From IMG/VR virus record IMGVR_UViG_3300042346_001601: DNA of 64,000 nucleotides, one strand, 5' to 3'. The stretch's first letter is position 1, and the number at the start of each line of letters is the position of its first letter. A model generated the notes under the pieces. That model was given only the letters and a program-made list of their open reading frames with translations. It made no database searches and was not told the origin of the DNA. Below are positions 20,048-50,921 of the stretch, piece by piece. Both the position numbers and the translations under genes were made by a program. The stretch is from a virus (Duplodnaviria; Heunggongvirae; Uroviricota; Caudoviricetes).

Positions 20048-20054
20048 GATTTTA

Positions 20055-20747: not shown

Positions 20748-20825
20748 AAAATAAAACCAAAAAAGGTTTAAATTTGGATCGGCAAAAATTATTCCATTTC
20801 AGAATTTACTTAAAGAGTCTTATTT

Positions 20826-21603: not shown

Positions 21604-21620
21604 TTTTTATGATAACTTTC

Positions 21621-22261: not shown

Positions 22262-22264
22262 TAG

Positions 22265-23335: not shown

Positions 23336-23348
23336 ATTATGTAATCAA

Positions 23349-23543
23349 TTAAGACTCGGTTGAAACGGAAGAATCACTTCCTGAAGGAGCAGAAGCCAAA
23401 ATCCACACAAAAAGAGAAATAAGCACCAGTCCAAATCTGTCGTCGTTACTCCAATTTGAAATCATCAGATCCCATCTGATAAATCCAATAATTAAATAGA
23501 GGGAAAATAAAGATTTTAGAGGAGTGATAAACCATTTTTTCAT
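23349..23543 (-). CDS. hypothetical small membrane protein
   Basis: two hydrophobic helices. Confidence 0.35.
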   Translation of the reverse strand: MKKWFITPLKSLFSLYLIIGFIRWDLMISNWSNDDRFGLVLISLFVWILASAPSGSDSSVSTES

Positions 23544-23618
23544 AAGACAATTTTTTTTTATTCTTCTAAACGATTTGAAAGGAGAAAAGTTCCGAATAAT
23601 CTTTCAGATCCTTTCTTT

Positions 23619-24068
23619 CTAAACGCTATGCGGGATGTTAACTCGAACACAGGATTGAGACTGTCCCTCATTCATCAAAAAATTGTTGATGTATCCCATG
23701 ATGTTAGCAGAGCCAATTGGATTGGCCGAATGGGTGTAAACTAAGGGGAAAATAATGCCCGATGATTTTTTCCCTACCCTGCCCTCGAGGGTGTCGTATT
23801 TATTCAGGTAGTAATCGACCAACCATTTTGCACAGTCCATCTCAGTCTTTTCAAGGATGTTTGAGTAGTTGAGCTCGTAATTAGGTTTAACATTGTTGAA
23901 ATATTCCTCCATGACAGTATCACCCAGATCGTGGTCCAGTGAAATGATCTCAATGTTTTCTAATCCTATATCAGTGACAACTTTTACAAACTGCTCGTAA
24001 TTTCGAACAACTATCCAGTTTTCATCGTTTGGGGTTCGAATATCATCTAAGTAAATTCTTTTTTTCAT
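23619..24068 (-). CDS. hypothetical protein, copy A of duplicated gene (paralog of 27968..28417)
   Basis: ~75% aa identity and ~80% nt identity to ORF 27968..28417 (MKKRIYLDDIRTP...ISLDHDLGDT...YTHSANPIGSANIMGYINNF). Confidence 0.55.
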   Translation of the reverse strand: MKKRIYLDDIRTPNDENWIVVRNYEQFVKVVTDIGLENIEIISLDHDLGDTVMEEYFNNVKPNYELNYSNILEKTEMDCAKWLVDYYLNKYDTLEGRVGKKSSGIIFPLVYTHSANPIGSANIMGYINNFLMNEGQSQSCVRVNIPHSV

Positions 24069-24098
24069 TTTTTGTGAGCTATTTTTTGCATTCTTGTG

Positions 24099-24230
24099 TA
24101 GTCAGGACAGGATTCGAACCTGTACGTGGGTTGAGTCCTTTGAGAATAACACCTTTCGGTCTCTTGAGTCTCTCCTGCAACATCCCCCACAGCTTTAGCT
24201 TACTTGCTTCTACCATTCCGCCACCTGACT
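24099..24230 (-). tRNA. tRNA-like element, 132 nt: canonical acceptor stem and T-arm, noncanonical/expanded centre
   Basis: Minus-strand RNA 5'-AGUCAGG UG GCGGAAUGGUAGAAGC...ACAGG UUCGAAU CCUGU CCUGACU A-3': 7-bp acceptor stem, U8, tRNA-Leu-like D-loop GGAAUGGUAGA, perfect T-arm GGUUCGAAUCC; but ~80 nt between D- and T-arms (possible intron or long extra arm closed by GUGGG/CCCAC). No anticodon arm could be assigned by eye. Confidence 0.45.
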
Positions 24231-24310
24231 ATAATTCACCTGCCTTTTATCTCCTCATATATTCCGCCCAAAATTATTATTATAATTATAAGTAAAAACG
24301 TCTGCATATT

Positions 24311-24601
24311 CTAAAAATGCTCCCCGAAGCCGTGTTGAGTGGCTACCAACTGTGGGTTTTCCAAGTAGCGACCAATCTCTTTGTATCCAGCCTCGATGCT
24401 TGTAAATGCAATACTCTTACATCCAACCTTGACGATACATCCTCTGTCTAGCGCGTGAATGCCAATCTCCCAGCGTTTAAGGTTTTCAATCCTTCTGCGT
24501 TGCTCTCCTTGTTCTTTGCTTTCGCATTGCTCTGTTGACTTTTCAAAGCACTGTGGCATTTCTCCGACAGGTTCTACTCTTAATGTTTGTTCTTCGTTCA
24601 T
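24311..24601 (-). CDS. hypothetical protein flanked by the two tRNA-like elements
   Basis: 96-aa ORF. Confidence 0.4.
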   Translation of the reverse strand: MNEEQTLRVEPVGEMPQCFEKSTEQCESKEQGEQRRRIENLKRWEIGIHALDRGCIVKVGCKSIAFTSIEAGYKEIGRYLENPQLVATQHGFGEHF

Positions 24602-24635
24602 TTTGATTGGGTTTAAATTGTTTTTATATTTTTAG

Positions 24636-24715
24636 TAGTCAGGACAGGTACTGCCCCTGTTGCTTGTTCTTTTGCTTTTATGCTCACACATGAGTTACTT
24701 TTACTCCACCTGACT
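24636..24715 (-). ncRNA. degenerate tRNA-like element (80 nt) sharing acceptor-stem and T-stem sequence with element at 24099..24230
   Basis: 5'-AGUCAGGUGG...ACAGG GGCAGUA CCUGU CCUGACU A-3': identical 5' 10 nt and 3' 13 nt to the first element; internal region does not fold into D/anticodon arms. Confidence 0.3.
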
Positions 24716-24720
24716 GTTTG

Positions 24721-25284
24721 TTAATCTAATTTACATTTTATTTTATCAAAATCCTTTGTTCCCAAATGAACTGAACTATCTACAGTCATATTAGAACGGG
24801 TTTCATCTTGTTTCCAAAATTCATGGCGAATAACTTGAACAATATCATAAGTTACTCTTGCACTTTCATCTACTACATCGGGATTGTAAATACCAAAACT
24901 TCCGCCATTAGCAAAGTTTTCTTGTAAAAGCATGTTAGCAGCATTATGTAATATTTTATCTGCTTCATCTCTAATACTGTGGTATTTTTCATAATCAATA
25001 GATAATTTTACATCCCCAACATCAGTCCAAGTACGAATTTCTTCTCCATTACCCCAATGACCTTTGGTTTTAATGTAACCATCTCCAATTTCTATCACCT
25101 CACCACGTTCGGTACTATCACCAACTTCTATTTCTTTTTTAGGTCGGAGTTTATCCCGTAGAACATTGTAATATGTTGGATGGTCTTTAATTACCCATAA
25201 TTGGCCGATACCGATACGGGAGTACATATCTAACGCCTGTTGAATTAGTCTAAGTTGTTCGTTTGTAACTTCTAATGTTGCCAT
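24721..25284 (-). CDS. hypothetical protein
   Basis: 187-aa ORF. Confidence 0.5.
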   Translation of the reverse strand: MATLEVTNEQLRLIQQALDMYSRIGIGQLWVIKDHPTYYNVLRDKLRPKKEIEVGDSTERGEVIEIGDGYIKTKGHWGNGEEIRTWTDVGDVKLSIDYEKYHSIRDEADKILHNAANMLLQENFANGGSFGIYNPDVVDESARVTYDIVQVIRHEFWKQDETRSNMTVDSSVHLGTKDFDKIKCKLD

Positions 25285-25295
25285 AATTTTTATTT

Positions 25296-25565
25296 TTAAG
25301 ATTTTGCGTAAATTATTTTATTTTGAAAATTTCCACTATGGACGTTTTCAACAAAATCAATTGCGTCTTTTAAAGTATTAAAAGTGTTTATCCCATTCCT
25401 AAAGTTCATTTGAGCCCAAAAAGGCCACCACCATCTCCATACTTGACATTCATAACCATGATAGCTGTCGTCTACAATTCTATATTTAATAGTTTTGTAA
25501 CCTAAAAAAGATTTTGAAGGCAATTTTTTCATAATAGTATTTTTAAAATCCCAAACGATATCCAA
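25296..25565 (-). CDS. hypothetical protein, paralog of 2481..2738
   Basis: Trp-rich; shared C-terminal motif. Confidence 0.45.
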   Translation of the reverse strand: MDIVWDFKNTIMKKLPSKSFLGYKTIKYRIVDDSYHGYECQVWRWWWPFWAQMNFRNGINTFNTLKDAIDFVENVHSGNFQNKIIYAKS

Positions 25566-25632
25566 AATAATATAACAATGAATGCAAATGCTACCGTAAA
25601 ATAATAGAATTTATCTTCCGATTTTAGATTTT

Positions 25633-25818
25633 TCATTTATTAAATAGTCTTGAAAAAAATTCAATTGTAAAAGCCACACAAAAAGGAATCCAAAGTGGAG
25701 ACGTTACCCACCACCAAGACCAATTGGCAACTACCCCGGCATCTGATAGTTTTAGAATTAAAAATATCAGAAAAATTATCCCTGCAATACCTAAACTCTT
25801 GTTTGTTTTCTTTTCCAT
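25633..25818 (-). CDS. hypothetical small membrane protein
   Basis: two TM helices. Confidence 0.35.
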   Translation of the reverse strand: MEKKTNKSLGIAGIIFLIFLILKLSDAGVVANWSWWWVTSPLWIPFCVAFTIEFFSRLFNK

Positions 25819-25846
25819 AACTTTTATTTTTATAGCGTAAATATAC

Positions 25847-25857
25847 TAGAAATTTTC
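25847..25857 (-). promoter_or_regulatory. putative promoter element (sense AGTATATTTAC) upstream of ORF 25633..25818
   Basis: member of recurrent motif family. Confidence 0.25.
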
Positions 25858-26262
25858 TTACTTTTCATCAATTTTAAAATTTTCGAAAAAAAATTTCACC
25901 TCCCTTCCTGTTTCTTCAATCAGCCCATATCTTTTTATGAATTTGTATTGTGTACTGTACTGGTTGAGCGAATTTAAAAAACCTTGAATATTGGATCTAA
26001 ATTGTTCTAACGTGAAAGAATTTTTTTGAATATTACAACTAGAGCAAGCTGGATTATAGTTTTCTAAAATCTCATTTTCTGGATACCTACATGTTCCACT
26101 ATTTACAAACTTACCTTTTTTTCTGTCCCATTTACTGTCCCTGACAATTGGCTGGATATGGTCCGCGTGCCAACTTTTTGTCAAATCACAGCCACAATAT
26201 GCACATTTTCCACCATACTTCTCAAAAATTTTAATCCTATCAGATTTTTTCATCTGTTTCAA
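25858..26262 (-). CDS. HNH endonuclease (small, freestanding)
   Basis: CAYCGCDL...WHADHIQP...NYNPACSSCNIQK = HNHc motif with zinc-binding Cys pairs. Confidence 0.7.
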   Translation of the reverse strand: MKQMKKSDRIKIFEKYGGKCAYCGCDLTKSWHADHIQPIVRDSKWDRKKGKFVNSGTCRYPENEILENYNPACSSCNIQKNSFTLEQFRSNIQGFLNSLNQYSTQYKFIKRYGLIEETGREVKFFFENFKIDEK

Positions 26263-26617
26263 TCTTTCTGATTTTCAGAATAGCCTCTATAGGCATTGTT
26301 TTCACACAATATTCAACGATATGTTTGAATTCTTCCAAAGGAAAAACTAGAAGTTCTAGGGAGAAGACTTTTGAATCTCGGTGTTCTTCTACCTGTAAAT
26401 GTTTATTGACCTTACCTACAATCTGCTCGGCCAATCGTTGGGTTATTTGTTTGAGAATAATACAATCGATATCTGGTGATAGGTAGTGTTCTAATATTTC
26501 TCGAGATAAGGTGTGTTGACATTTGTGATGGGAATTTTCTAACATTAACGCTTGTTTGGCGGTCTGTAGAGATCTGACGAGTTCTCTAGAAACATGATCG
26601 AAATCTTGTGTGTTCAT
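26240..26617 (-). CDS. hypothetical protein
   Basis: 125-aa ORF. Confidence 0.45.
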   Translation of the reverse strand: MNTQDFDHVSRELVRSLQTAKQALMLENSHHKCQHTLSREILEHYLSPDIDCIILKQITQRLAEQIVGKVNKHLQVEEHRDSKVFSLELLVFPLEEFKHIVEYCVKTMPIEAILKIRKIETDEKI

Positions 26618-26621
26618 TGAT

Positions 26622-26996
26622 TTATGTTTTTGGGTTTGATCTTTCCAATCTGAAACAAAATTCAGTATGAAAAAAACTTTTAGTGCTCGACAGAGAGTTT
26701 TTCCAATCTACAAATGCTCTAGTAAATGCCTCGAAATCCATTTTGTCATAATGGTTCAATTCGGCCAGACGAACTAACTCATTGTAGTCCATGTCTCTTA
26801 AATATCCTTTTAGTGGCATTACTCTACCCACACAAGTGCTCCAACGAAAATCTCTACCATTAAAAGTAATATAGTAGTAATCTTCGCCATCGTCTCCTAT
26901 TGCAACTAATCTTTCTATCTCGCTATATGATATAATCACAAATTGTCCCTTGAGTAGTTCAAATTCTTTTAAAATTTTCTCTAAGTTACTGTCCAT
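26622..26996 (-). CDS. hypothetical protein
   Basis: 124-aa ORF. Confidence 0.45.
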   Translation of the reverse strand: MDSNLEKILKEFELLKGQFVIISYSEIERLVAIGDDGEDYYYITFNGRDFRWSTCVGRVMPLKGYLRDMDYNELVRLAELNHYDKMDFEAFTRAFVDWKNSLSSTKSFFHTEFCFRLERSNPKT

Positions 26997-27228
26997 TTTT
27001 TGCTTGGTTTTTAATATTTTGATTATGTAGTGCTACAATATGCTCTACTATTTCTTTGCTTAGCTCTCCACCTACTAGAATATGATATTCCTCTTGAAAG
27101 TCTCCATCTTTAAATAAAATAGGTTCAACTGGACTGATAGTACGGCACCAACATTGCTCTCCCTGAGAGCAAGTGCCAATCTTCCACTCGACTAGGAGTG
27201 ATTTTTCTTTAGCTTGAGAGTAGTCCAT
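26986..27228 (-). CDS. hypothetical protein
   Basis: 80-aa ORF. Confidence 0.4.
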   Translation of the reverse strand: MDYSQAKEKSLLVEWKIGTCSQGEQCWCRTISPVEPILFKDGDFQEEYHILVGGELSKEIVEHIVALHNQNIKNQAKNGQ

Positions 27229-27239
27229 TGTGTTAAACT

Positions 27240-27938
27240 TTAGGAATGTATTTGAACTTCAAATATCTGACTTTCGTGTGCATCCGATACATAACAACCC
27301 ATAACGAGCAAAAATGTTTTTTCTCCGGGTATTCCAAAAAAACACCTATAATCGTTGGTGGAAAAGATTTCCAATTCAGATATTCCAACGAACAAAAGAT
27401 TATCAATCAATTCCCTTGTAGTCTTCATAGACAAGTAAACTCCATCCACATTAAAGTAATGATTTTCTGGTAAGTGGTAATGTCCAGTTTCCTCCGTGCC
27501 TGAGGGTATTTCACCTTCGCCATCACATTTTTCACAATCAGATTCTGAACCACAACAGTCACACTCTATAGTTCCAAATCCATCACACTCAGAGCATTCT
27601 ATGTATTTTTCCGAAAATTCTGGAATTAATTTGATTTTCTCAAAAACTTCTTCAAAATCCTTGATTTTGATTCTACCGATAGGTCGAGGCACACCCTCGT
27701 AAAATTCGGAGAATTTCTCAACAACTGGAAGTGCCTTGATCCCCTCTGTATCCGAATAAATGTATCTGTTTTCAAAATTTTTATAATCAGGATCGTACGT
27801 CCAAATTAATTTGTAGGTGTCCGTAGCGCAGACCCATCCATCGTCAAAACAAGTTGGTTTCAACATTTGTGTTCTATATGAATCCTTAGAACACCAGGAT
27901 TCAATGAACGTTTGATATTTTGGATTTTCTCTAATCAT
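27240..27938 (-). CDS. hypothetical protein with Cys-rich CxxCxGxG zinc-finger-like segment (start moved to internal Met)
   Basis: CSECDGFGTIECDCCGSESDCEKCDGEGEI; the start is placed at MIRENP (27938) so that the promoter-like motif at 27949-27960 lies upstream and the overlap with 27968..28417 is removed. Confidence 0.45.
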   Translation of the reverse strand: MIRENPKYQTFIESWCSKDSYRTQMLKPTCFDDGWVCATDTYKLIWTYDPDYKNFENRYIYSDTEGIKALPVVEKFSEFYEGVPRPIGRIKIKDFEEVFEKIKLIPEFSEKYIECSECDGFGTIECDCCGSESDCEKCDGEGEIPSGTEETGHYHLPENHYFNVDGVYLSMKTTRELIDNLLFVGISELEIFSTNDYRCFFGIPGEKTFLLVMGCYVSDAHESQIFEVQIHS

Positions 27939-27948
27939 TATTTTTTTT

Positions 27949-27960
27949 ACAAATATACGG
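27949..27960 (-). promoter_or_regulatory. putative promoter element (sense CCGTATATTTGT)
   Basis: exact TAnnTTTG match (TATATTTG) 11 nt upstream of ATG at 27938. Confidence 0.3.
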
Positions 27961-27967
27961 AAAAATC

Positions 27968-28417
27968 TCAAACAAAGTGTGGAATGTTCACACGAACACA
28001 AGATTGAGGTTGACCCTCATTCATCCAAAAATTATTAATGTATCCCATAATGTTGGCAGATCCGATTGGATTTGCCGAATGGGTATACACTTGTGGAAAA
28101 ACGATACCAGATGATTTTTTTTCTGACCTACTTTTCTGAGTAAGGTAATTGTCAAGATAGTGATTGACCAACCACTTAGCACAATCCATTCCCGTCTTTT
28201 CAAGGATGTTATTGTAATCCAATTTGTAGTTTGGACTCACGTTATTGAAATATTCATTCATCGCTGTATCACCCAAATCGTGATCCAAGGAAATTACATC
28301 TATGTTTTCTAATCCTATATTTGTTACCGCTTCCACGAACTCGTCATAATTCCTCACAACCACCCAAATATCTTCTTTGGGGGTTCTAACATCATCTAAG
28401 TAAATTTGTTTTTTCAT
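27968..28417 (-). CDS. hypothetical protein, copy B of duplicated gene (paralog of 23619..24068)
   Basis: MKKQIYLDDVRTP...ISLDHDLGDT...YTHSANPIGSANIMGYINNF. Confidence 0.55.
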   Translation of the reverse strand: MKKQIYLDDVRTPKEDIWVVVRNYDEFVEAVTNIGLENIDVISLDHDLGDTAMNEYFNNVSPNYKLDYNNILEKTGMDCAKWLVNHYLDNYLTQKSRSEKKSSGIVFPQVYTHSANPIGSANIMGYINNFWMNEGQPQSCVRVNIPHFV

Positions 28418-28418
28418 T

Positions 28419-28856
28419 TTAAAGTTTGTTTATGACTTCACCCTTTGAGTTTTCATAGTAAGTTTCATATCCTTTGGAGTTATACTCTATTCTTTCCCAC
28501 ATCCCATTGGAATCCTCTGTTCGACAACCATTATTTGAATATGTAGTTTGTTTCCAATACCCTGTCGAATCTTCATACAAAGTTATATCCCGTTCAGAAT
28601 TGTATTCATACCTTGCCCAAAACCCATTTGACGTAGTTTCTTTAATCCGATTATCATTAGAATCATATTCATATCGTTCCCAACGGTTCTTTGAATTTTC
28701 CCAATAAATTTGGTTACCTCTATCATCTCGTTCACTACTTTCCCAATAACCGGTGGCATCTTCGCTATAAGCAACCTGCCCGTCTTTAGTTTCAATTACC
28801 AAGTCGCCATCTATTTCAAAGTTCCATTTAAGCAACTGTCCAATTGTTTGTGTCAT
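28419..28856 (-). CDS. MORN/YwqK-like repeat protein
   Basis: Repeated units GYWE..ER...G..IYWENS...WERYEYDSN..., ~6 tandem ~22-aa Tyr/Trp/Glu repeats typical of MORN_2 (YwqK) proteins. Confidence 0.5.
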   Translation of the reverse strand: MTQTIGQLLKWNFEIDGDLVIETKDGQVAYSEDATGYWESSERDDRGNQIYWENSKNRWERYEYDSNDNRIKETTSNGFWARYEYNSERDITLYEDSTGYWKQTTYSNNGCRTEDSNGMWERIEYNSKGYETYYENSKGEVINKL

Positions 28857-28876
28857 ATTTTTTATTTTTATTTATG

Positions 28877-28890
28877 GTATAAATATACGA
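28877..28890 (-). promoter_or_regulatory. putative promoter element (sense CGTATATTTATACC) upstream of ORF 28419..28856
   Basis: near-identical to 14-mer at 4588-4601. Confidence 0.3.
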
Positions 28891-28931
28891 ACGAATTTTC
28901 GTGTCTCCAAATGACGGAGTTATAACCAATG

Positions 28932-29279
28932 CTAAACAAGCACTGCATATTCATAGCCAAAATTAGTTGCCCCATCAGTTACGACATACTTCCAATCAAC
29001 TTCGAATTGTTCAAGTTCACATACAGGCTTGTTGAATTTTTGGACAAGTAGTAAATCTGCAATTTGCTCGCTTTCTTTTTCAAGTTCATAAATTGGTAAG
29101 CAGTGATGCCAGTTGTTTTCTCCAGCAGGTTCAGTAATGTAATCAACAAACCATTTTCCATTTGCTTTGGTTAGTTTTCCTTTGTTTATTTCGGTTGTAA
29201 TGTTTGACATAAATTCCATATTTGTATTATTTAAGTTTAAAAATTCGTAAAAGCACTGGTTATAACAGCACATAAGCAA
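28932..29279 (-). CDS. hypothetical protein
   Basis: 115-aa ORF. Confidence 0.4.
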   Translation of the reverse strand: MLMCCYNQCFYEFLNLNNTNMEFMSNITTEINKGKLTKANGKWFVDYITEPAGENNWHHCLPIYELEKESEQIADLLLVQKFNKPVCELEQFEVDWKYVVTDGATNFGYEYAVLV

Positions 29280-29339
29280 AAGCCCAAATCCAACAGCACA
29301 ATGCCCACGCTATTTGTGCCTTCGCTTATCTGCAAAACG

Positions 29340-30059
29340 TTATGACATATTACCAACTTTAAGTTCACCATCATAAATCAAATATTGCTTTGATGGTAAA
29401 GCATCTATCATATAATATCTACCACCCATGTGTTTATTCATACCATTCAAATCTATTTCTTTAATTTGAGTATGTCCAAATATTTGAATAAAACGTTTTT
29501 TGATTGCGTTTTCATTTCTTCGTTTGTTAGACATTAACAATGAAGTAGGTCTTATCCACACAGGAGTTTGAGTTACATTATCCCCATAAGCATTAAATCC
29601 ATTAAAAGCAAAAGCATGAGGCCTGTGTTTAAATAGCTCATTGATTTCATCAACCAAAGTATCTACATTACAACGACCAAAAGTTTCTACAACCCAATAA
29701 TGGCTTACTCCTGCGTGAGTGCAAAGAAAATCATCAAATGAGTATGCCATTTGCAACAGGTCCATATTCTCTGATAAAACATGGCTGATATCAAACTGAA
29801 GAGCGGGTTGAAAACCTGAATAAGTTTCGTTGATATGCATATAGTGTAGGTCATGATTACCTGTCAATAGAATCACTTCCTTGTCGGAGTTTCGTTTAAA
29901 CTCACATATCTCCTTAAAGTTATGTATTTGGTCAACACCGGGTATATCAAAAGAATCAAAGTAATCTCCAACAAAGATTATTCTATCTGCGTTTTCTTTT
30001 GCTACAATGTCCTTCCAAATTGGACGGCCGTGGATATCTCCAATGAATATTGTTTTCAT
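29340..30059 (-). CDS. calcineurin-like Ser/Thr phosphatase (PPP family, lambda-phosphatase/PrpE-like)
   Basis: GDIHG, VGDYFD, LLTGNHD, ...THAG motifs of PPP metallophosphatases. Confidence 0.75.
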   Translation of the reverse strand: MKTIFIGDIHGRPIWKDIVAKENADRIIFVGDYFDSFDIPGVDQIHNFKEICEFKRNSDKEVILLTGNHDLHYMHINETYSGFQPALQFDISHVLSENMDLLQMAYSFDDFLCTHAGVSHYWVVETFGRCNVDTLVDEINELFKHRPHAFAFNGFNAYGDNVTQTPVWIRPTSLLMSNKRRNENAIKKRFIQIFGHTQIKEIDLNGMNKHMGGRYYMIDALPSKQYLIYDGELKVGNMS

Positions 30060-30475
30060 TTGTTAGTAAAGTTTATATCTCCATTAGTCATACCAACAGC
30101 GGTGTTAGTGGTAGTAGTACCGATTACTCCAGTTCCATATTTTTTTGGGTTAGGGACCATCTTATTACCCATAATACAACCACATAAACCACTTCCACCA
30201 TTTTTTGGATTACAAGAGCAAATACTTGCATAAGGAACTTCATCAGGTTCTGAACTTGTTAAACTTATACTGAACCCACCGGGATGACTTTTGTCCCAAG
30301 TTGGGATATTTGGAATATTTTCATCGTGTGGAATAGATTTATCATATTGAATTGTTTCAAGAGCATCCAACTGCTTTTTGAATGCTTTTCTTTCAGTTTC
30401 TAAAACTAAAATATCCCTATCAAGTGATTTGATATGTGATTTGATATCACTAATTGCTCTTTCAATCTTGTTCAT
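30056..30475 (-). CDS. hypothetical protein (N-terminal coiled coil, Gly/Thr-rich C-terminus)
   Basis: 139-aa ORF. Confidence 0.4.
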   Translation of the reverse strand: MNKIERAISDIKSHIKSLDRDILVLETERKAFKKQLDALETIQYDKSIPHDENIPNIPTWDKSHPGGFSISLTSSEPDEVPYASICSCNPKNGGSGLCGCIMGNKMVPNPKKYGTGVIGTTTTNTAVGMTNGDINFTNK

Positions 30476-30728
30476 AGTTTTTATGTGTTTTTAATCCCAA
30501 TAATAATAATATTTGATAATTACAATAATCAAAATAATCAACTAATTCTTTATGCCTTTCAGTTGTAAGTTCAGGATTAAGAATTAATCTTGCCGCTTCT
30601 GCTCTGTGTGAAAGAAGATTGAATAATGAGGGTTTAATTGAATTATCCCACATATCTCTATTAAAATGGGATGACTGTACAATTCTATGTTGAGTGCCCA
30701 GCGTCTCTAATGTGTTTGATTTAATCAT
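30462..30728 (-). CDS. hypothetical protein
   Basis: 88-aa ORF. Confidence 0.4.
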   Translation of the reverse strand: MIKSNTLETLGTQHRIVQSSHFNRDMWDNSIKPSLFNLLSHRAEAARLILNPELTTERHKELVDYFDYCNYQILLLLGLKTHKNYEQD

Positions 30729-31078
30729 ATTGTATTTTTGCTATCTTCCATTAACTTTTTAAGTTCTTTATTAAAATCTAAATAATCTAATTCCATATCA
30801 CACACATTTTCAACCAAAACCTCATATCCAAATACTATTCGCATATGAATATGAGATATATTTTTTTGATAATAATCCATATAGTATTCCCAGCTAAACT
30901 TGTCAGTATCTTCGCAGTGCTCTATAATCCCCATAAATTTTTCATCACCTTCCCAATCAGATTTGAAAGATTTCCATTCGTTTTTGTTGGTAGGATCAAT
31001 TGTACATAGTTCATCGTTGAATTTCATCCAATGCATTAAACAATTAATATGTTCCTGCGGTGCTCTTGCCATTCTCAT
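30725..31078 (-). CDS. hypothetical protein
   Basis: 117-aa ORF. Confidence 0.4.
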   Translation of the reverse strand: MRMARAPQEHINCLMHWMKFNDELCTIDPTNKNEWKSFKSDWEGDEKFMGIIEHCEDTDKFSWEYYMDYYQKNISHIHMRIVFGYEVLVENVCDMELDYLDFNKELKKLMEDSKNTI

Positions 31079-31088
31079 AACTGTAAAA

Positions 31089-31307
31089 TTAATGTTTCCA
31101 TCCCATTCTCATTTTGCTTATGGGAGTTAAAGCAGATGTGTAATTCATAAAGTTATCCCAATCTCCCCCACAACTATATACAACCCGTACTTCAGTATTT
31201 GTATGATCGGGGATTTCTTTTACCATTCCGTTTTCGCAGTCATCACATCCTTCGAATGGTATGTAATGAACCTTGTCTCCGATTTTCAATTTAGCAATAT
31301 CTATCAT
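31089..31307 (-). CDS. hypothetical protein
   Basis: 72-aa ORF. Confidence 0.35.
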   Translation of the reverse strand: MIDIAKLKIGDKVHYIPFEGCDDCENGMVKEIPDHTNTEVRVVYSCGGDWDNFMNYTSALTPISKMRMGWKH

Positions 31308-31316
31308 TTTTTTGTT

Positions 31317-31526
31317 TTAAAGGTCATACCAATACATTCCTAAACATACTTTCATAAAAGTACGATGAATCCAATTAGGTCTATAAGTTAAGTTTAATTG
31401 TACATAATGGGTGGATTGATTGCCAAATCTATACCCACCCACACATTTTGGTATTTCAGGACTTAGTACCGATATATTAGACTTTTCAAAATCCTTTGGG
31501 TGTAGGTTAAATGTTTCTCGTTTCAT
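31317..31526 (-). CDS. hypothetical protein
   Basis: 69-aa ORF. Confidence 0.35.
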   Translation of the reverse strand: MKRETFNLHPKDFEKSNISVLSPEIPKCVGGYRFGNQSTHYVQLNLTYRPNWIHRTFMKVCLGMYWYDL

Positions 31527-31547
31527 TAGTAAATCCTTTTTTCATAA

Positions 31548-32408
31548 TTATTTTCCTAAATTATACATCATATTAGTTCCACTACCCAATTGAGTAGTGG
31601 GTAAAACTCCATTCCATTTATTGATATACTCAAGTTGTAATAGTAATGGTGTTAAGGTTTGTTGTTTCATCCTGTTAGCTTCTGCTTCAGCTTTGGCTGA
31701 TGTTAGCATTGCTTGAGCATTACCTTCAGCTTGTGCGATTTTGATTTTGGCTTCAGCTTCAGCTTGCTTTACCCTATTTTCGGCTGTAAGTGCGGATTGA
31801 ACTGCGTTATTTTTAGCTTCAATGGCTTTCTTAAATGTTTCAGGATATACAAGATTTGATGTAAATTGAGCCAACATGAATCCTTCAGGTAGTAAGTGTG
31901 ATTCTAATACCTTTCTAACTTTCACTTCAAATTGTTCACGATTTGAAATAAGTTCATCGGCAGTATATGAGTTAGCAACCACACGAAACGCATCATATAC
32001 CGCAGTTTTTAAGAAACCTGATTCAATCTCATCCAATGTAACTCGGTATTTACTAAAAATATAGGGTACTCGTTCTCGTTTAACTGAATAGTTTAATAAT
32101 GGTGAAACGTGAAATTCTGAACCATCTTTTGAGTTTACCACAAATGATTCATCGGGATTATCTTCGCCATTGTTTTTATATTCTTTGTGCTGAACAAATG
32201 TTGGGAACTCAATGATTTTTGTGGTAAATGGATTGTAAAATACCCAACCAGTTACCTCAGTAATATCATCTACACCTTTACCATCTCCATAGAGATTTAC
32301 TTTAACACCAACGTGACCCGCATCAATGCGTTCACAACTTGATAGACTGAAAATGATTAATCCTAATGCTAGCAATGCTACTGATACAATTTTAAAAGGG
32401 TTTTCCAT
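31548..32408 (-). CDS. SPFH/Band-7 (prohibitin/HflC-like) domain lipoprotein
   Basis: Signal peptide + lipobox FSLSSC; SPFH-like core followed by Ala/Glu-rich coiled coil (AENRVKQAEAEAKIKIAQAEGNAQAMLTSAKAEAEAN). Confidence 0.7.
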   Translation of the reverse strand: MENPFKIVSVALLALGLIIFSLSSCERIDAGHVGVKVNLYGDGKGVDDITEVTGWVFYNPFTTKIIEFPTFVQHKEYKNNGEDNPDESFVVNSKDGSEFHVSPLLNYSVKRERVPYIFSKYRVTLDEIESGFLKTAVYDAFRVVANSYTADELISNREQFEVKVRKVLESHLLPEGFMLAQFTSNLVYPETFKKAIEAKNNAVQSALTAENRVKQAEAEAKIKIAQAEGNAQAMLTSAKAEAEANRMKQQTLTPLLLQLEYINKWNGVLPTTQLGSGTNMMYNLGK

Positions 32409-32422
32409 AGTTTTTTGTTTTT

Positions 32423-32629
32423 TTAGTTTTGTTTTGTTGTGGTTTTTGGTTTAAAAATGAATTGTAAGGTTAAAAATAAAAAATAAATACCAATAAATAA
32501 GGTTATTACTCCGAAGAAAAAAGCAATGGTAGATGGCATATTCATTAACGAGAAACTAAACTTCATTAGTTCTGAAAATGCTAATCCAAGTAGGATGCAG
32601 GAGAATGTTTTAATTAAAATGTTTTTCAT
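32423..32629 (-). CDS. hypothetical small membrane protein (possibly NfeD-like partner of SPFH protein)
   Basis: two TM helices, directly upstream of SPFH gene. Confidence 0.35.
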   Translation of the reverse strand: MKNILIKTFSCILLGLAFSELMKFSFSLMNMPSTIAFFFGVITLFIGIYFLFLTLQFIFKPKTTTKQN

Positions 32630-33257
32630 AGTTTATATTTTGTAAAGTTCTATTCAATTTTCCATAGTTTGTTTTACCATCAAATGCTCTACCAATACGA
32701 TACAAATGATTAGGTGATAATCCAAAGTAACCATCGCAATGATAAAATTTATCCATTTGTTCTGGAAGCATATCTGAGTCATCATCTAAAATTGCATAAT
32801 CCTCAACTTCAGGTCTTTTATCTAGCCATTCCTTTATTTCTTCTCCTCTCATACCAAACCCACCTCCTGTGATACCAACAAAAGTTCCCTCATTAAATCC
32901 AAAATGAACCAATGCGCGTTCCCACCACTGGGGAATTACGTTTTTCTCCGTTCCAAAATGGCGTTTCCAAACAGATGAAATACAAATTTTAGTTCCAGTC
33001 CTATTACAAAAATCAGAAAGCCACTGCCATTTTTGGGGGCAAGTCTCTTCAATCAACCTTTTAAGTTGGTATTCATAAGTGTAATGGCTATCGGGTGTTT
33101 TGTAATTTGCTAAACTCACAGGTTTTGATTTAATACCTAAAAACTTTCTGATTAGGTAGTAGTAAGTCCTGGGTTTCAACCACCTTTTTTTGTGTCGGTT
33201 CTCGTAAAAAATATGGGAGTTCATAACTCCATCAATATCTAAAAATATAACTTTCAT
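32610..33257 (-). CDS. HAD-like phosphatase-fold protein (RNA-repair-associated HAD type)
   Basis: N-terminal MKVIFLDIDGVMN (DxDGV motif I) typical of HAD domains found in RNA-repair loci. Confidence 0.5.
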   Translation of the reverse strand: MKVIFLDIDGVMNSHIFYENRHKKRWLKPRTYYYLIRKFLGIKSKPVSLANYKTPDSHYTYEYQLKRLIEETCPQKWQWLSDFCNRTGTKICISSVWKRHFGTEKNVIPQWWERALVHFGFNEGTFVGITGGGFGMRGEEIKEWLDKRPEVEDYAILDDDSDMLPEQMDKFYHCDGYFGLSPNHLYRIGRAFDGKTNYGKLNRTLQNINYEKHFN

Positions 33258-33266
33258 ATCAAAGGT

Positions 33267-33983
33267 TTATTTTGTAAGTAATTCTTTAAATCTTTTTCTT
33301 AACATTCTAACATATACATCATTGGATAGTCCGTAATTTCCGATAGCCCACATATCATTGTATTCAATAACTACGTTCTGACCCCCACTCAAAACACCTA
33401 TATCAATTGTGTAGGCCGATGGAAAAGTATTTCTATTGTTTTGGATTATTTTTTCTAAATACGAACTATCAATCGAAACATAAAGATTACCAGAGTAGTT
33501 TGCTAGATATTCAATGCGGTGATCGTTGATATAGCATCTCCATTCACTCTCAATTGGTTGATCAAAAACATCATAAACCATAACTCGTGTTTCTTCAGGA
33601 ACATTAGAAATTGATGTGTTCTGCATTTGATCAATCACAAAACCAGTGAATAATTTTATGTCAAATGGTTTTATGAAAAACTTTTGACCTAGTTGTGCTA
33701 ATCTCTTAATTTCCCCTAAGGTTTGTATGCTGTGTTTTCTATCGGAATTCATAGGTAGTCTAGGATCTTCAACACCAGCGATTTGAAACACAACTCTCAT
33801 GAACTCAACAGAACCAACAAATAAATTGTTAGATGTTACTAATTTATTAAACTTGCCGGAAATTAAATCATCATAAGTAATAAGTCTAAAGTCCTGTCCA
33901 GTATCCATAGCACCATACATAGCACAAGAAACATCAAAGTGATGTGGTAACTCTCGGTTGCTGTCTTTTTGTAAATAAATCAT
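33267..33983 (-). CDS. possible ATP-grasp-fold protein
   Basis: C-terminal VVIEYNDMWAIGNYGL resembles the ATP-grasp C-terminal strand; weak, by eye only. Confidence 0.35.
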   Translation of the reverse strand: MIYLQKDSNRELPHHFDVSCAMYGAMDTGQDFRLITYDDLISGKFNKLVTSNNLFVGSVEFMRVVFQIAGVEDPRLPMNSDRKHSIQTLGEIKRLAQLGQKFFIKPFDIKLFTGFVIDQMQNTSISNVPEETRVMVYDVFDQPIESEWRCYINDHRIEYLANYSGNLYVSIDSSYLEKIIQNNRNTFPSAYTIDIGVLSGGQNVVIEYNDMWAIGNYGLSNDVYVRMLRKRFKELLTK

Positions 33984-33990
33984 AATGGTG

Positions 33991-34000
33991 CAAATATATA
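33991..34000 (-). promoter_or_regulatory. putative promoter element (sense TATATATTTG) upstream of ORF 33267..33983
   Basis: TAnnTTTG match. Confidence 0.25.
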
Positions 34001-34079
34001 CATTTTGTAACTAAAAACAAAATTTTTTAGAAAAATTACCAACCTCAACTATTTTGAATATCTAAGAGTATAACTTTCA

Positions 34080-35156
34080 TTAAATTTTATAAAATTGGGG
34101 TTTTATTATTTTCCAAATTAATGAGGAGTATTCCTTACGATCGTACATTTTAAATAAAAGGGAAGGATTTTTGTATTTTTTTGCTTCTTCGGCAAAACTA
34201 GCTCTCCACTTGAAATCTTTTATGCTCTTGAGGGTGTCGAAGATAGCCAAATACTCCTTCTCTACCTCCTGGTATTGACTTATCAGCTCGTTGGCATATC
34301 CTGTCACCTTTCCATAAAACTCATCGGGGGTGTCGACAAGGATGGCTGACATGTCACCTCCGGTAGACAAGACCTCCCAGATCGAAGTGGAAGTAACATT
34401 TGTCATTATTCTGTGCAACCTGAGATACTCCTCAAATTTAATTTTCATCCGAAAGTTACCAGGTTGAAATCTAAGAACGAAACCCTCCTTGTTAACATCG
34501 TTCTGTGCCTTCAAACTACGGTATAACTGATCGGAAAAGTTAAAATGCTGCTTTGTTTGGGTGATGTCTTTATCAGAGACACCGTTGAACTTAAAGACAT
34601 CACAGGCCATAGACCAATGTAATTCTTCTTCGTTGGTTTGTTTGTAAAAATTATTGGGGACCGCAGATAAAAATATGACTTTTTCTTCCCCGTAATTTAC
34701 AACGATACGATTTTCCGGGTAGATGATCTCAACCAAGTACGCGTATTCTTTTATCCAACTATCCAACTTGTATTTGGATTGAACCATCTCTAATCCCTTT
34801 ATTGCCTGGTCTGAGGTAAAAGAACCCCGGGTAGCCATAATCCATTCACCCTCGTAGTAAAACAGTATGCCTAAAGAGCCATCCGCCTTTTCCTGCACAT
34901 ACACACAGTCTCCTTGGGTTGGAATTTGTCCTTTGTTCACAATTTCTTCGTAGTTGAAAAACTTTGGAAAGGGTTTAACAAGGATCCCGCCGGTAACATC
35001 ATCGGTAATAAGACCTCTACACATAAGGGTCACATCGTCCCATAATCCATCGTATTGAACCTTTTCGCTGTAGTTCCAAATTGTCAGCGGAAAGCGAGGA
35101 TGGGACTGGGAGTGGAGCAGGCCCCTTTCCTTATAATCTTCTAGTACGTTTCTCAT
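34080..35156 (-). CDS. RNA ligase, T4 Rnl1-like
   Basis: MCRGLITD / PFPKFFNYEE / VQEKADGSLGILF align with T4 Rnl1 ECRGIMFE / PMEKFFNLNE / LTKEDGSLVSTY (motif I lysine KxDGSL). Confidence 0.8.
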   Translation of the reverse strand: MRNVLEDYKERGLLHSQSHPRFPLTIWNYSEKVQYDGLWDDVTLMCRGLITDDVTGGILVKPFPKFFNYEEIVNKGQIPTQGDCVYVQEKADGSLGILFYYEGEWIMATRGSFTSDQAIKGLEMVQSKYKLDSWIKEYAYLVEIIYPENRIVVNYGEEKVIFLSAVPNNFYKQTNEEELHWSMACDVFKFNGVSDKDITQTKQHFNFSDQLYRSLKAQNDVNKEGFVLRFQPGNFRMKIKFEEYLRLHRIMTNVTSTSIWEVLSTGGDMSAILVDTPDEFYGKVTGYANELISQYQEVEKEYLAIFDTLKSIKDFKWRASFAEEAKKYKNPSLLFKMYDRKEYSSLIWKIIKPQFYKI

Positions 35157-35205
35157 TCCCCAAATATAAGAATAAATTCTAAAATTAATTCACAAAAAAT
35201 CGAAC

Positions 35206-35433
35206 CTATCCATTAAAAAAAGTTTCCCTCTGAATCTTCTCCACAAAAGACAGAAAATATTCAGAAGGCAAAACTTTTTCCAAATCAGACACAAGAACCA
35301 CATCCCGGCCAGAAACCGATTGGATTTGAAGAGATTCCCCGCATTTCTCTAACAACTGGCCGTCAAAGAAATTTGAAACCAATCCCACGGGAACTAACTC
35401 AGGAATGTTCAGTGCTTCCATTAATTTGGTCAT
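35206..35433 (-). CDS. hypothetical protein
   Basis: 75-aa ORF. Confidence 0.35.
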   Translation of the reverse strand: MTKLMEALNIPELVPVGLVSNFFDGQLLEKCGESLQIQSVSGRDVVLVSDLEKVLPSEYFLSFVEKIQRETFFNG

Positions 35434-36055
35434 TAATTCTTTTTATTTTATTCATCTTATGAATTTCTAGATATTTTGCCAAATCCTCATTACTCATCCA
35501 CTTATTGAAATCCGGTTCAATTTTTTTGATTTGTTCGGTTAAATCTTTTTTGTAACCTTTTCGATAGTAATAATCTTCAATGGAATCAGCAAGGTCCTGA
35601 ATGTATTGAGGTGCAGCAACTGAGATTCTTAAATCATACCATTCCCACTTTGTTTTATAATCTACAAATGTAATTCCTTTGGTTAGTTTTCTATGTAAAT
35701 TATGTAGTGCCCTATTACGAACCCTTACAATAGATTTATCGTTACCAAACACATCGAGAAATCTAAGAAACCAACGAGGACACCACCAAGGTTTTGCTTC
35801 ATAGTCCATAGCCAAAACTAATGGGACCATAGCTTTATTACAGTTATTGTAATCAGGTACAGAACCTAAATACCCATACTTTTCAGAAAAATCTTTAGGA
35901 AAGAAAATATAACGAATATCATCCCACTCCAAATCACGAGTATGTACTATACCTTTCTTTCTACCCTTCCAAAATAGGAGAGATTGTCCAAAGTCTTTAG
36001 CTTTTGCACTAAATGGGCGATTGTCCTTAAAAGGACCAAATTTACTTTTTTTCAT
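35399..36055 (-). CDS. hypothetical protein
   Basis: 218-aa ORF. Confidence 0.45.
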   Translation of the reverse strand: MKKSKFGPFKDNRPFSAKAKDFGQSLLFWKGRKKGIVHTRDLEWDDIRYIFFPKDFSEKYGYLGSVPDYNNCNKAMVPLVLAMDYEAKPWWCPRWFLRFLDVFGNDKSIVRVRNRALHNLHRKLTKGITFVDYKTKWEWYDLRISVAAPQYIQDLADSIEDYYYRKGYKKDLTEQIKKIEPDFNKWMSNEDLAKYLEIHKMNKIKRINDQINGSTEHS

Positions 36056-36901: not shown

Positions 36902-36968
36902 GGAGAATTTGGTTTAGACCCCAAATATAGAAAAATTCCTCCAATAGTTGATACTTCGAATAAAAAAA

Positions 36969-41875: not shown

Positions 41876-42928
41876 TTATTCTAATTCCTCGAGAGAGTTG
41901 GAGAGATATTTGGTGATTTTATAAGGATCCGCATTTGATCCTGGTCTCCTGTCTTCAAGATAACCCAACCACTTATCAGAGGTAGAAATGGGTATTCTGA
42001 TTGATGCTCCTCTATCACTTACACCCCAACTGAATTTCGAAATGCTTTGGGTTTCGTGCTTGCCGGTAAGTCTCAGATGATTGTCCGATCCATAGAGGGA
42101 AATAGCAACATCGTGGGTTTTTTCCAGCACTTGACAAATGCTGTTAAAAAATTCTTCCCCTCCTGTTTCTCTCATTCTATTATTTGAAAAATTGGTGTGC
42201 ATTCCTGATCCGTTCCAATCTTCCTCTGCTCCCATGGGCTTGGGGTGAAAGTCAACTTTGATCTGGTAATTTTCTGCAATTCTCATGAGCAAAAATCTAG
42301 ATATCCAAAGATCATCTGCGGCCGTCTGTTCTCCCTGGCCAAAAACCTGATATTCCCACTGACCGAGCATCACTTCGGCATTGGTGCCTGTGATCTGAAT
42401 GCCACAAGAAAGACAGGCATCCAAATGTTCCTCTGAAATATTTCTGCCAGCGGAATAAGGATGACCGACTGAACAATAATACTTGCCCTGAGACTCGGGT
42501 GGGTTGAAATTTTCAAATCCTACCGGCCGATTACTATTTTTATTGAACCACCTGAGCACATACTCTTGCTCAAACCCAAACCAAAGAGCATGAGAATCCT
42601 TTCCGATCAAGGCTCTAGTATTGGAAGAATGTGGGGTGCGGTCTGGATTTAGAACCTCACACATTACGAGATAGCAAAAGCCCATTCTGAGAGGATCTGC
42701 ATAAACCCTCACTGGTTTTAGAATCAAATCTGAGAAATTACCTTCAGCCTGCCGGGTGGAACTTCCATCAAAAGACCATTCTGGAAGTTCTTCTGGTCTA
42801 GGTTTTGCGTGTTGGGGCGAAAGAGTGTTCAGATTTGACGGGGTATAATCGAAAATCTTTACTTTTGATCTCAAATTTGGTTCGGGTTGATATCCATCTA
42901 ACCAAACATACTCCAATTTTAATTTCAT
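41876..42928 (-). CDS. glnII: glutamine synthetase, type II (eukaryote-like GSII)
   Basis: Near-collinear with eukaryotic GSII: YVWLDG, LPEWSFDGSST, FGFEQEY, YYCSVG, ITGTNAEVMLGQWEYQ, KPMGAEEDWNGSGMHTNFS, SIRIP, YLEDRRPGSNADPY. Confidence 0.9.
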   Translation of the reverse strand: MKLKLEYVWLDGYQPEPNLRSKVKIFDYTPSNLNTLSPQHAKPRPEELPEWSFDGSSTRQAEGNFSDLILKPVRVYADPLRMGFCYLVMCEVLNPDRTPHSSNTRALIGKDSHALWFGFEQEYVLRWFNKNSNRPVGFENFNPPESQGKYYCSVGHPYSAGRNISEEHLDACLSCGIQITGTNAEVMLGQWEYQVFGQGEQTAADDLWISRFLLMRIAENYQIKVDFHPKPMGAEEDWNGSGMHTNFSNNRMRETGGEEFFNSICQVLEKTHDVAISLYGSDNHLRLTGKHETQSISKFSWGVSDRGASIRIPISTSDKWLGYLEDRRPGSNADPYKITKYLSNSLEELE

Positions 42929-47439: not shown

Positions 47440-47449
47440 TTTTTTTATT

Positions 47450-47854: not shown

Positions 47855-47859
47855 AAATG

Positions 47860-50920: not shown

Positions 50921-50921
50921 G

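Follow-up and report, generated by a model that had tools for sequence, protein, structure and literature searches.

Gene content and layout of the locus

The DNA analysed here (the window) is a stretch of 64,000 nucleotides from IMG/VR virus record IMGVR_UViG_3300042346_001601 (Caudoviricetes). It is phage-like, with open reading frames (ORFs) nearly all on the minus strand and a G+C content of 30–41%. This study concerns the segment 32610–35156, whose minus strand encloses exactly three intact ORFs, and in particular the middle one, which encodes an ATP-grasp protein of the R2K clade. The predicted products, in the order of the coding strand, are:

34080–35156, minus strand: Rnl1-family RNA ligase, 358 aa
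33267–33983, minus strand: R2K.2 ATP-grasp protein, 238 aa
32610–33257, minus strand: HAD_SAK_2 phosphatase, 215 aa

The ligase gene follows orf75 after 49 nt and is separated from the ATP-grasp gene by a 96-nt spacer (33984–34079). The ATP-grasp and HAD genes are 9 nt apart, the HAD gene overlaps a 68-aa ORF with two transmembrane (TM) segments by 20 nt, and 14 nt further on begins a gene for an SPFH protein. The tight block is composed of the R2K, HAD, TM and SPFH genes, with the ligase gene just upstream, behind the spacer. A protein identical to this R2K is recorded on 35 contigs, the longest of 267 kb, and the source is a large uncultured phage. Gene order was the same at six of the six places listed for the identical protein; these places are on JGI and ENA assemblies made independently of one another, which excludes an assembly artefact as the source of the arrangement.

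On the minus strand, the spacer carries TATATTTG at 33991–33998, 8 nt ahead of the R2K start codon (ATG), which may weakly point to a separate R2K promoter of the Bacteroidota −7 type (TAnnTTTG). The same box recurs on this strand at 35161–35168 and 36922–36929, so that it lies 5–21 nt upstream of three consecutive starts (R2K, Rnl1 and orf141). Across the whole window, matches to TATATTTG/TAnnTTTG numbered eight against 5.0 expected, which is no enrichment; with upstream regions window-wide not enriched for it either, the box was rejected as a general promoter motif. A sigma-70 scan returned fewer promoter-like sites than in shuffled sequence, and a terminator scan found none in the spacer between Rnl1 and R2K. 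The box near the three starts and a C-terminus resembling those of type IX secretion in a related phage (L021, see below) hint at a host among the Bacteroidota.

Identity of the three encoded proteins

The middle protein matched the Pfam profiles R2K_2 (PF18299; E = 1.7e-27, 96.5 bits, gathering cutoff 26.2 bits) and R2K_3 (PF14243; E = 1.1e-16, 62 bits). In alignments of 14–40 homologues, K105, K110, E147, R149, D194 and E207-x-N209 are invariant, and all are present here; R82, within an NSxR motif, is invariant or nearly so. By our assignment of alignment columns, R82, K105, K110 and E207-x-N209 would be the conserved arginine, two lysines and ExN metal-binding motif of the clade. Sequence searching alone detected no solved structure for this protein. 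Its AlphaFold2 model (pLDDT 89.7, pTM 0.84) had 346 Foldseek matches in the Protein Data Bank (PDB) at E ≤ 1e-3, the top ones being Ddl, LysX/ArgX, RimK and PsnB (E between ~1e-8 and ~1e-7). Profile and model together identify it as a member of R2K clade family 2 with a predicted ATP-grasp fold, which bears out the "possible ATP-grasp" of a preliminary description of this DNA, and we infer an active-looking ATP-grasp carboxylate–amine or carboxylate–hydroxyl ligase.

The R2K clade comprises CDC123/R2K.1, R2K.2 (DUF4343) and R2K.3 (PMC4431377). R2K.2 proteins have been predicted to be peptide ligases that modify host proteins and have been treated apart from RNA repair (PMC4431377; PMC7824862); in the latter survey both subjects appear, in separate sections. 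No characterised R2K.2 member was found in the literature searched, and neither was a published link between R2K and RNA repair, in a search that did not cover Burroughs and Aravind (2016), where a mention is possible. At E ≤ 1e-3 the family has 1592 cluster representatives, almost all of them stand-alone proteins of ~240 aa. The subfamily is essentially phage-borne, with two matches in 185,579 bacterial and archaeal species when a narrow alignment served as query, and no repair genes lie near these two loci.

The upstream protein matched RNA_lig_T4_1 in a Pfam profile search (PF09511; E = 1.4e-17, 64.7 bits, gathering cutoff 28.3 bits, residues 46–243). It also matched phrog_562, labelled "RNA ligase and tail fiber protein attachment catalyst" (E = 5.6e-63, profile positions 19–366 of 377), and the T4 Rnl1 structures 2c5u, 5tt6 and 9do4 at E ~1e-10 (2c5u, 1.1e-10). 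Motif I is KADGSL at residues 90–95, as described earlier, and its lysine nucleophile, K90, aligns with T4 K99 (K99-E-D-G-S-L). The alignment to 2c5u completes the motif set with motif III (E143, T4 E159), motif IV (E224-G225, T4 E227-G228) and motif V (K238 and K240, T4 K240 and K242), and it also pairs R47, K65, F67 and G93 with T4 R54, K75, F77 and G102. The residues that we take, from Shuman-lab mutagenesis, to be essential in T4 Rnl1 include R54, K75, F77, G102, K119, E159, E227, G228, K240 and K242; R110 at the position of K119 is the sole substitution, and 10 of the 11 T4-essential residues are identical.

Against TIGR02308 ("T4 RnlA family RNA ligase") the protein scored 60.7 bits, below the equivalog cutoff of 242.25, and it is therefore regarded as a divergent member of the T4 Rnl1 family. 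In the C-terminal region the match to phrog_562 runs to position 366 of 377 and that to TIGR02308 to 357 of 373; the pairwise alignment with the T4 structure stops at residue 288. Among 50,697 phage records, the best match (37% identity) was to Streptomyces phages, whose homologues have a polynucleotide kinase gene nearby. On its motifs I, III, IV and V, the product of 34080–35156 is assigned to the T4 Rnl1 family of RNA ligases.

The third protein matched HAD_SAK_2 (PF18143; E = 2.3e-19, 70.6 bits, gathering cutoff 27.5 bits, profile positions 1–138 of 139) and phrog_1818 (E = 4.4e-26). The DxDGV motif of the preliminary description is DIDGV at residues 7–11, contributing D7-I-D9 (nucleophile and acid); together with S94-S95 (motif II), D159-D160 (the acidic residues of motif IV) and the family residue R137 it is conserved in 10 homologues. 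The 215-aa ORF holds a single domain and its neighbours are separate genes, with no multidomain Swiss-army-knife fusion. The protein is predicted to be an RNA 3′/2′-phosphate phosphatase, and its closest relative (87% identity) lies in locus L086. Both the HAD_SAK-type and the ATP-grasp domain, for which profile searches had been suggested, thus score above the Pfam gathering thresholds.

RNA- and tRNA-end-processing genes lie close to R2K in other phages

R2K loci were collected from IMG/VR, from metagenomes and by exact-match look-ups, giving 102 distinct loci, which fall into 63 lineages when grouped at 70% identity. Neighbours, in the flanks only, were screened with purpose-built profile hidden Markov models and by Pfam scans of recurrent neighbour clusters; profiles were used instead of tblastn with the window proteins, which misses divergent HAD_SAK_2 neighbours of R2K. 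An RNA- or tRNA-end-processing gene was found within 6 kb of R2K at 28 of the 102 loci, and at 20 of the 51 with a flank of at least 8 kb. The neighbouring families were:

HAD_SAK_2: 7 loci
Pnkp-type: 6 loci
Second calcineurin-like family: 6 loci
CCA-adding enzyme: 5 loci
Rnl1: 3–4 loci
cREC (cyclic-phosphate processing receiver): 3 loci
Phosphoesterase of the type in the window: 3 loci
YqeY: 3 loci

The partners of R2K vary by lineage, a displacement pattern typical of repair systems. Of the end-processing genes, 18 are no more than 1 kb from R2K and 17 are 1–6 kb away, a density about four times higher close to the gene. With an expected near fraction of 0.233, calculated from the searchable sequence, this skew has a binomial p of 2.7e-4 (5e-4 after de-duplication by lineage and family), in a test that leaves out three cases in which start and stop codons overlap. 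No proximity skew is seen for unk138, which with 14 loci is the most frequent of the other neighbours and mostly lies at a distance from R2K.

Individual loci illustrate the pattern. In L097 and L098, HAD_SAK_2 directly follows R2K, and the 6 kb around hold no ligase. The gene directly upstream of R2K in L095 is YqeY; in L094 it is one ORF further upstream, and SmpB and two HAD_SAK_2 genes are nearby there. In L182 (1–10825) the order is tRNA array, ART-PolyVal, RNase_T, R2K and a P-loop kinase joined to tRNA_lig_CPD, followed by one unidentified ORF, a Pol-beta/RlaP-like nucleotidyltransferase, NUDIX, a tRNA and Rnl1. Judged by these gene assignments, L182 is a textbook example of a phage operon for RNA repair, with tRNA arrays on its flanks and R2K inside it.

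Two further observations concern the R2K neighbourhood. An M42 glutamyl aminopeptidase (PF05343, E = 1.6e-70) adjoins R2K in six loci (L095, L111, L175 and three others), in four of them within 1 kb downstream, and the pairing suggests that amino-acid residues may be both added and trimmed. The calcineurin-like phosphoesterase beside R2K in L114 (3632–5299; the same protein occurs in L200) is 555 aa long and contains a weak internal match to LAGLIDADG_3 (E = 0.0023), perhaps an intein or the insertion of a homing endonuclease.

Relatives of the ligase

The same question was viewed from the ligase in 80 related IMG/VR loci, with Rnl1 proteins 42–64% identical to that of the window, and in a few other Rnl1-bearing loci, 83 in all. 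Near Rnl1, these 83 loci have a P-loop kinase homologue in 58 cases, cREC in 33 (mostly directly downstream), orf230 in 28 (L007–L033, L071–L084; usually immediately up- or downstream) and an Rnl5-type ligase in six. No full R2K gene was found near Rnl1 in the 80 related loci or the few others, and HAD_SAK_2 was near it in only about three of the 80. The operon that had been described is accordingly not borne out by synteny: R2K is beside the ligase in none of the 80 relatives, and since HAD_SAK_2 is also rare there, the Rnl1–R2K–HAD_SAK_2 arrangement is lineage-specific and no conserved operon. By comparison with these loci, R2K–HAD has the look of a cassette inserted between Rnl1 on one side and the TM–SPFH pair on the other.

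HAD_SAK_2 is one gene away from Rnl1 in the window. In L087 it lies inside a repair cluster, a single group of Rnl1, the kinase, an Rnl5-type ligase, two HAD_SAK_2 genes, cREC and orf230, which ties HAD_SAK_2 firmly to repair. The other informative relatives differ in content. L079 has the order orf218, Rnl1, cREC, other genes and phosphoesterase; L086 has orf218, a run of orf145-like paralogues, HAD_SAK_2, cREC, other genes and an Rnl5-type ligase; and L021 has orf230, Rnl1, phosphoesterase, kinase, PurA, a 695-aa protein, a TM ORF and SPFH. In L004 the phosphoesterase adjoins Rnl1, and a remnant of R2K lies between a tRNA array and cREC.

Several features of these loci stand on their own. 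The Rnl1 homologue of L079 (8001–9255) is in two pieces, corresponding to residues 3–146 and 149–358 with ~178 nt between them, and could reflect a frameshift, a pseudogene or a small insertion. The paralogues of L086 (5731–7923) form a tandem of about eight orf145-like genes between orf218 and HAD_SAK_2, in place of the Rnl1 and R2K of the window. The 695-aa protein of L021 has a C-terminus that resembles, by eye and with no profile test, a type IX secretion sorting domain. In L064, a related phage, a GOLLD RNA (12376–12787, plus strand; Rfam RF02032, 313 bits) lies beside tRNAs and a tmRNA, a few kb from a pair of Rnl5-type and Rnl1 ligases.

These neighbourhoods bear on whether the locus is concerned with RNA repair at all. 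The Rnl1 homologue might act in tail-fibre attachment like gp63, or in some other ligation, with the HAD protein a phosphatase of nucleotides or metabolites and the clustering coincidental. This would suit the annotation of phrog_562 with the second function of gp63, the chemical promiscuity of HAD phosphatases and the score of the ligase below the T4 RnlA equivalog cutoff. It is nonetheless very improbable, given a fully conserved ligase active site, ligase neighbours that across the 80 loci are kinase and cREC rather than tail genes, HAD_SAK_2 genes within tight repair clusters such as that of L087, and at least nine RNA-end-processing genes in the window, all inside a span of 16 kb. The RNA-repair interpretation that the preliminary description gave to the ligase and HAD genes is thus backed by context, both in the window and in relatives.

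The surrounding island

A mosaic island for the repair of RNA/tRNA breaks, ~16 kb in size (about 19.2–36 kb of the window), has the three genes as its most ligase-proximal part. Its other members, with the genes next to them, are:

19190–19573, minus strand: P-loop polynucleotide-kinase-like protein, 127 aa (AAA_33, E = 7.7e-14; Walker A GCPGAGKS)
19592–20047, minus strand: predicted HAD_PNKP-type polynucleotide 3′-phosphatase, a separate gene, 151 aa (PF25109, E = 2.6e-30; DLDGT motif)
20055–20747, minus strand: orf230 (phrog_14949, E = 6.6e-28), heading the HAD_PNKP and kinase genes
22265–23335, minus strand: second RNA ligase, NgrRnl/DraRnl (Rnl5) type (PF21189, E = 1.9e-38; PF09414, E = 1.7e-24)
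23619–24068, minus strand: cREC_REC, copy 1 (PF20274, E = 5.3e-18)
27968–28417, minus strand: cREC_REC, copy 2 (PF20274, E = 7.7e-20)
29340–30059, minus strand: calcineurin-like phosphoesterase, 239 aa (PF00149, E = 9e-10)
31548–32408, minus strand: SPFH/Band-7 protein, 286 aa (PF01145, E = 7.8e-20; phrog_200, E = 2.4e-68)
32423–32629, minus strand: TM ORF, 68 aa, two hydrophobic segments, paired with the SPFH gene
35399–36055, minus strand: orf218, upstream of Rnl1 (3566 homologues, no Pfam domain)

The second ligase has an N-terminal OB domain (PHA02142) and the nucleophile motif KLDGSS at residue 174; it matches NgrRnl (PDB 5cot, E = 1.7e-73) and scores 188 bits against TIGR02306, above the cutoff of 151. 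All four genes of the "two ligases and two HAD phosphatases in 15 kb" counted earlier do lie within 19592–35156. Their description as an unusual investment does not stand: jumbo phages carry up to three RNA ligases (PMC7824862), and Rnl1 and Rnl5-type ligases also co-occur in the six related loci mentioned above. Linkage of cRec to RNA ligases has been reported as well (PMC7824862). The calcineurin-like protein matches the phosphoesterase part of phrog_8238, a family of phosphoesterase–RNA-ligase fusions, and is a candidate for the 2′,3′-cyclic or 3′-phosphate esterase of the island. As a common neighbour of Rnl1, orf230 is a candidate uncharacterised repair component; it has no Pfam or PDB match.

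The P-loop kinase at 19190–19573, 14.5 kb from Rnl1, is the only 5′-OH kinase candidate here, and the three genes by themselves amount to a ligase and a phosphatase, with the kinase elsewhere in the same island. The ORFs of the window that were scanned, which took in some but not all of the small ones, included no RlaP or CCA-adding nucleotidyltransferase.

This distribution gives some room to the idea that R2K and HAD_SAK_2 are a Pnkp-like end-healing pair, with R2K acting as an ATP-dependent 5′-OH kinase or RNA-end activator, the HAD protein as 3′-phosphatase and the three genes as a self-sufficient cassette. Some ATP-grasp-fold proteins are kinases, the three genes include no P-loop kinase, the slot beside Rnl1 is normally occupied by a kinase in relatives (the 58 loci above), and the stand-alone R2K–HAD_SAK_2 pairs of L097 and L098 mirror the kinase-plus-HAD layout of Pnkp. 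The idea is improbable all the same. The genome already has a P-loop kinase and HAD_PNKP, and in L182, L110, L120 and L172 R2K lies beside a Pnkp-type or kinase–CPD gene and so does not replace it; moreover, its structural neighbours are amide or ester ligases, not kinases, and no nucleic-acid-binding feature was identified in it.

The SPFH protein is a possible membrane scaffold. A similar TM ORF and SPFH pair follows unrelated genes in L021, which makes the pair a separate unit. SPFH lies within 8 kb of Rnl1 in seven loci; of the 102 R2K loci, four have it no more than 6 kb from R2K. An SPFH gene inside a bacterial rtc locus has been reported (PMC13086221). A role as a repair scaffold was not adopted, the TM–SPFH pair being independent of HAD_SAK_2 and only occasionally near Rnl1 or R2K. 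Upstream of the ligase, orf218 adjoins Rnl1 in L079, is upstream of the HAD_SAK_2 region in L086 and has a counterpart directly upstream of R2K in L113 and L185; searches of Pfam, NCBIfam and PADLOC gave nothing meaningful for it, and its AlphaFold2 model (pLDDT 37) was unusable. A defence-system interpretation was also discarded, with no convincing PADLOC matches for the three genes, SPFH, cREC or their neighbours.

An element at 24099–24230 (minus strand, 132 nt), between a cREC gene and the Rnl5-type ligase gene, matches the Rfam tRNA model with 31.5 bits (gathering score 29). It has good acceptor, D and T arms (GGUUCGAAUCC) and an insert of ~79 nt that replaces the anticodon and variable region; its folding z-score of −1.2 is unexceptional. 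ARAGORN makes no call for it and found no tRNA in the window, and no equivalent was found in L086 or L087. The element may represent a tRNA with an intron, one that has decayed, or a tRNA-like RNA. Elsewhere, the window holds a phage tmRNA gene (57505–57944, minus strand; Rfam RF00023, 72 bits, full length) adjoined by a gene for a ClpB-like AAA+ chaperone (58049–60514, plus strand), a glutamine-synthetase-like gene (41876–42928, minus strand) and a sugar-modification cluster (46798–52635, minus strand) of CmcI-type methyltransferase, DegT aminotransferase, GT2 glycosyltransferase and FkbM methyltransferase genes.

A possible repair pathway and its alternatives

Domain identities, intact catalytic residues, gene order, recurrence across assemblies and the proximity of R2K to repair genes were computed here; the enzymatic steps, any co-transcription and any role of R2K we infer from knowledge of T4 Pnkp/Rnl1 and PrrC and from the cited family assignments. 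The reading that we consider somewhat probable is heal-and-seal repair of RNA breaks bearing 2′,3′-cyclic phosphate and 5′-OH ends, with R2K as an accessory ligase. Such breaks would be made by RNase effectors of the host or of rivals that cut tRNA or other RNA. The two cREC proteins, the calcineurin-like phosphoesterase, or both, would open the cyclic phosphate; HAD_SAK_2, and redundantly HAD_PNKP, would strip the remaining 3′/2′-phosphate; and the P-loop kinase (19190–19573) would phosphorylate the 5′-OH. The Rnl1-type ligase would then adenylylate itself on K90, pass the AMP to the 5′-phosphate and seal single-stranded loop breaks, with nicks in duplex RNA left to the NgrRnl-type ligase. 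R2K.2 would act as an accessory amide or ester ligase on the same damaged pool, on tRNA or a translation factor, for example by re-attaching or adding an amino-acid-type group, and its position would not be accidental.

That the phage R2K.2 ATP-grasp is an unrecognised component of tRNA/RNA damage repair, an ATP-dependent ligase working beside end-healing enzymes, is put forward as a tentative and rather doubtful proposal. Possible roles for such a component include restoration or addition of an amino-acid-type group on damaged tRNA (at the 3′ end or on a modified anticodon base) or on a tRNA-binding translation factor; direct activation of RNA ends is a further possibility.

A number of points weigh against a part for R2K in repair. 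About 70% of R2K loci have no recognisable RNA-repair neighbour. The calcineurin-like families counted as repair genes could be protein phosphatases, and without them the counts become 14 near and 15 far (p about 0.003 as a rough estimate). In large phages accessory genes form clusters in any case, often next to tRNA arrays, and in cultured jumbo phages with distant R2K homologues no repair neighbour is annotated, almost all neighbours being "hypothetical". None of the 80 related Rnl1 loci has R2K, nor does L086, so repair clearly needs no R2K. The M42 aminopeptidase beside R2K in six loci and the published prediction of host-protein modification (PMC4431377) count on the same side. For the locus as a whole, the three genes include no kinase or nucleotidyltransferase of their own, the ligase falls under the NCBI equivalog cutoff for T4 RnlA, and the protein activities proposed here are predictions from family membership.

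Several of these points fit a different division of labour, in which RNA would be repaired only by Rnl1, HAD_SAK_2 and the distant kinase, cREC and phosphoesterase. R2K would then be an unrelated host-takeover ligase of peptides or amino acids, used to tag a host protein, and its presence in this hypervariable accessory island would be incidental. We regard this as quite possible, if short of probable. It agrees with the published prediction for R2K.2 (PMC4431377; PMC7824862) and with a fold whose nearest matches are amino-acid ligases (Ddl, RimK and LysX). The adjacent M42 genes, the possible promoter box in the 96-nt spacer, the many R2K loci with no repair neighbour and the absence of R2K from 80 Rnl1 loci, with its slot filled by other genes in L021, L079 and L086, also speak for it. 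It leaves unaccounted for the roughly four-fold concentration, seen in many lineages and with many partner families, of end-processing genes at 1 kb or less from R2K, the place of R2K midway in the complete repair operon of L182 and the recurrence of the R2K–HAD_SAK_2 pair in L097 and L098. If R2K does act on a host protein, that protein might yet be a translation factor, and this division would then be less sharply distinct from an accessory role of R2K in repair.

Comparison with known systems

The closest known parallel is the Pnkp–Rnl1 pair of phage T4, which counters the PrrC anticodon nuclease. The window ligase has the same catalytic residues, bar R110 at T4 K119, and the window also encodes a P-loop kinase and a Pnkp-type HAD protein; the same heal-and-seal logic would be expected. 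Unlike in T4, the kinase and HAD are separate small genes lying 14–15 kb away from the ligase, the ligase itself is no more than a distant relative of the T4 protein (E = 1e-10, under the equivalog cutoff), and HAD_SAK_2, two cREC proteins, a calcineurin-like phosphoesterase and a second ligase are added.

The RNA-repair gene sets of jumbo phages (Iyer et al., 2021, PMC7824862, and, as cited there, Burroughs and Aravind, 2016) are similar in combining Rnl1 with other ligases, in a stand-alone "Swiss-army-knife" HAD, in cRec linked to ligases, in calcineurin-like phosphatases and in several ligases per genome with a modular, shuffled order. The locus had been said to match predicted neighbourhoods of HAD, ATP-grasp and ligase genes. 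This comparison calls for correction, in that the "ATP-grasp" there is the fold of the RNA ligase itself (PMC7824862), whereas the separate ATP-grasp here is an R2K.2 protein, a family published as predicted peptide ligases of host proteins. The jumbo-phage survey lists R2K ATP-grasps apart, as predicted host-protein modifiers (PMC7824862); in the window, by contrast, R2K sits between a ligase and a SAK-type HAD, and its relatives are enriched beside repair genes.

Within the R2K clade, the window protein is typical in passing the R2K_2 model, in keeping the arginine, two lysines and ExN, and in being small, stand-alone and phage-borne, as noted for R2K.2 (PMC4431377). Its contexts differ. Those published are R2K.3, GNAT and ADP-ribosylglycohydrolase genes in bacteria (PMC4431377), whereas this aquatic-phage subfamily neighbours HAD_SAK_2, Pnkp, CCA-adding enzyme, YqeY, Rnl1 and M42 peptidase genes. 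With Pnkp/Hen1-type systems of Clostridium thermocellum and Swiss-army-knife proteins, the window shares the classes calcineurin-like phosphoesterase, kinase, ligase and HAD_SAK, and phrog_8238 fuses a phosphoesterase with a ligase. The activities in the window are, by contrast, on separate small genes, with no fusion found and no Hen1 methyltransferase identified.

All the component families have been described before in jumbo phages, and as tools of phage tRNA repair the ligase and HAD are nothing out of the ordinary. With the rest of the island, they add one more uncultured large phage with a redundant, shuffled tRNA-repair kit against host RNases. The new lead is that the R2K.2 family lies repeatedly beside RNA/tRNA-repair genes in other phages. 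In this orphan family related to CDC123, many unrelated phage lineages place R2K.2 beside varied RNA- and tRNA-end-processing genes. This raises the hypothesis of a translation- or tRNA-directed ligation step during repair, for which the window, L182 and L097/L098 form a defined set of loci. Should R2K.2 prove to be a repair component, the function of the prokaryotic sister family of CDC123, the eIF2-assembly factor of eukaryotes, would become approachable for the first time.

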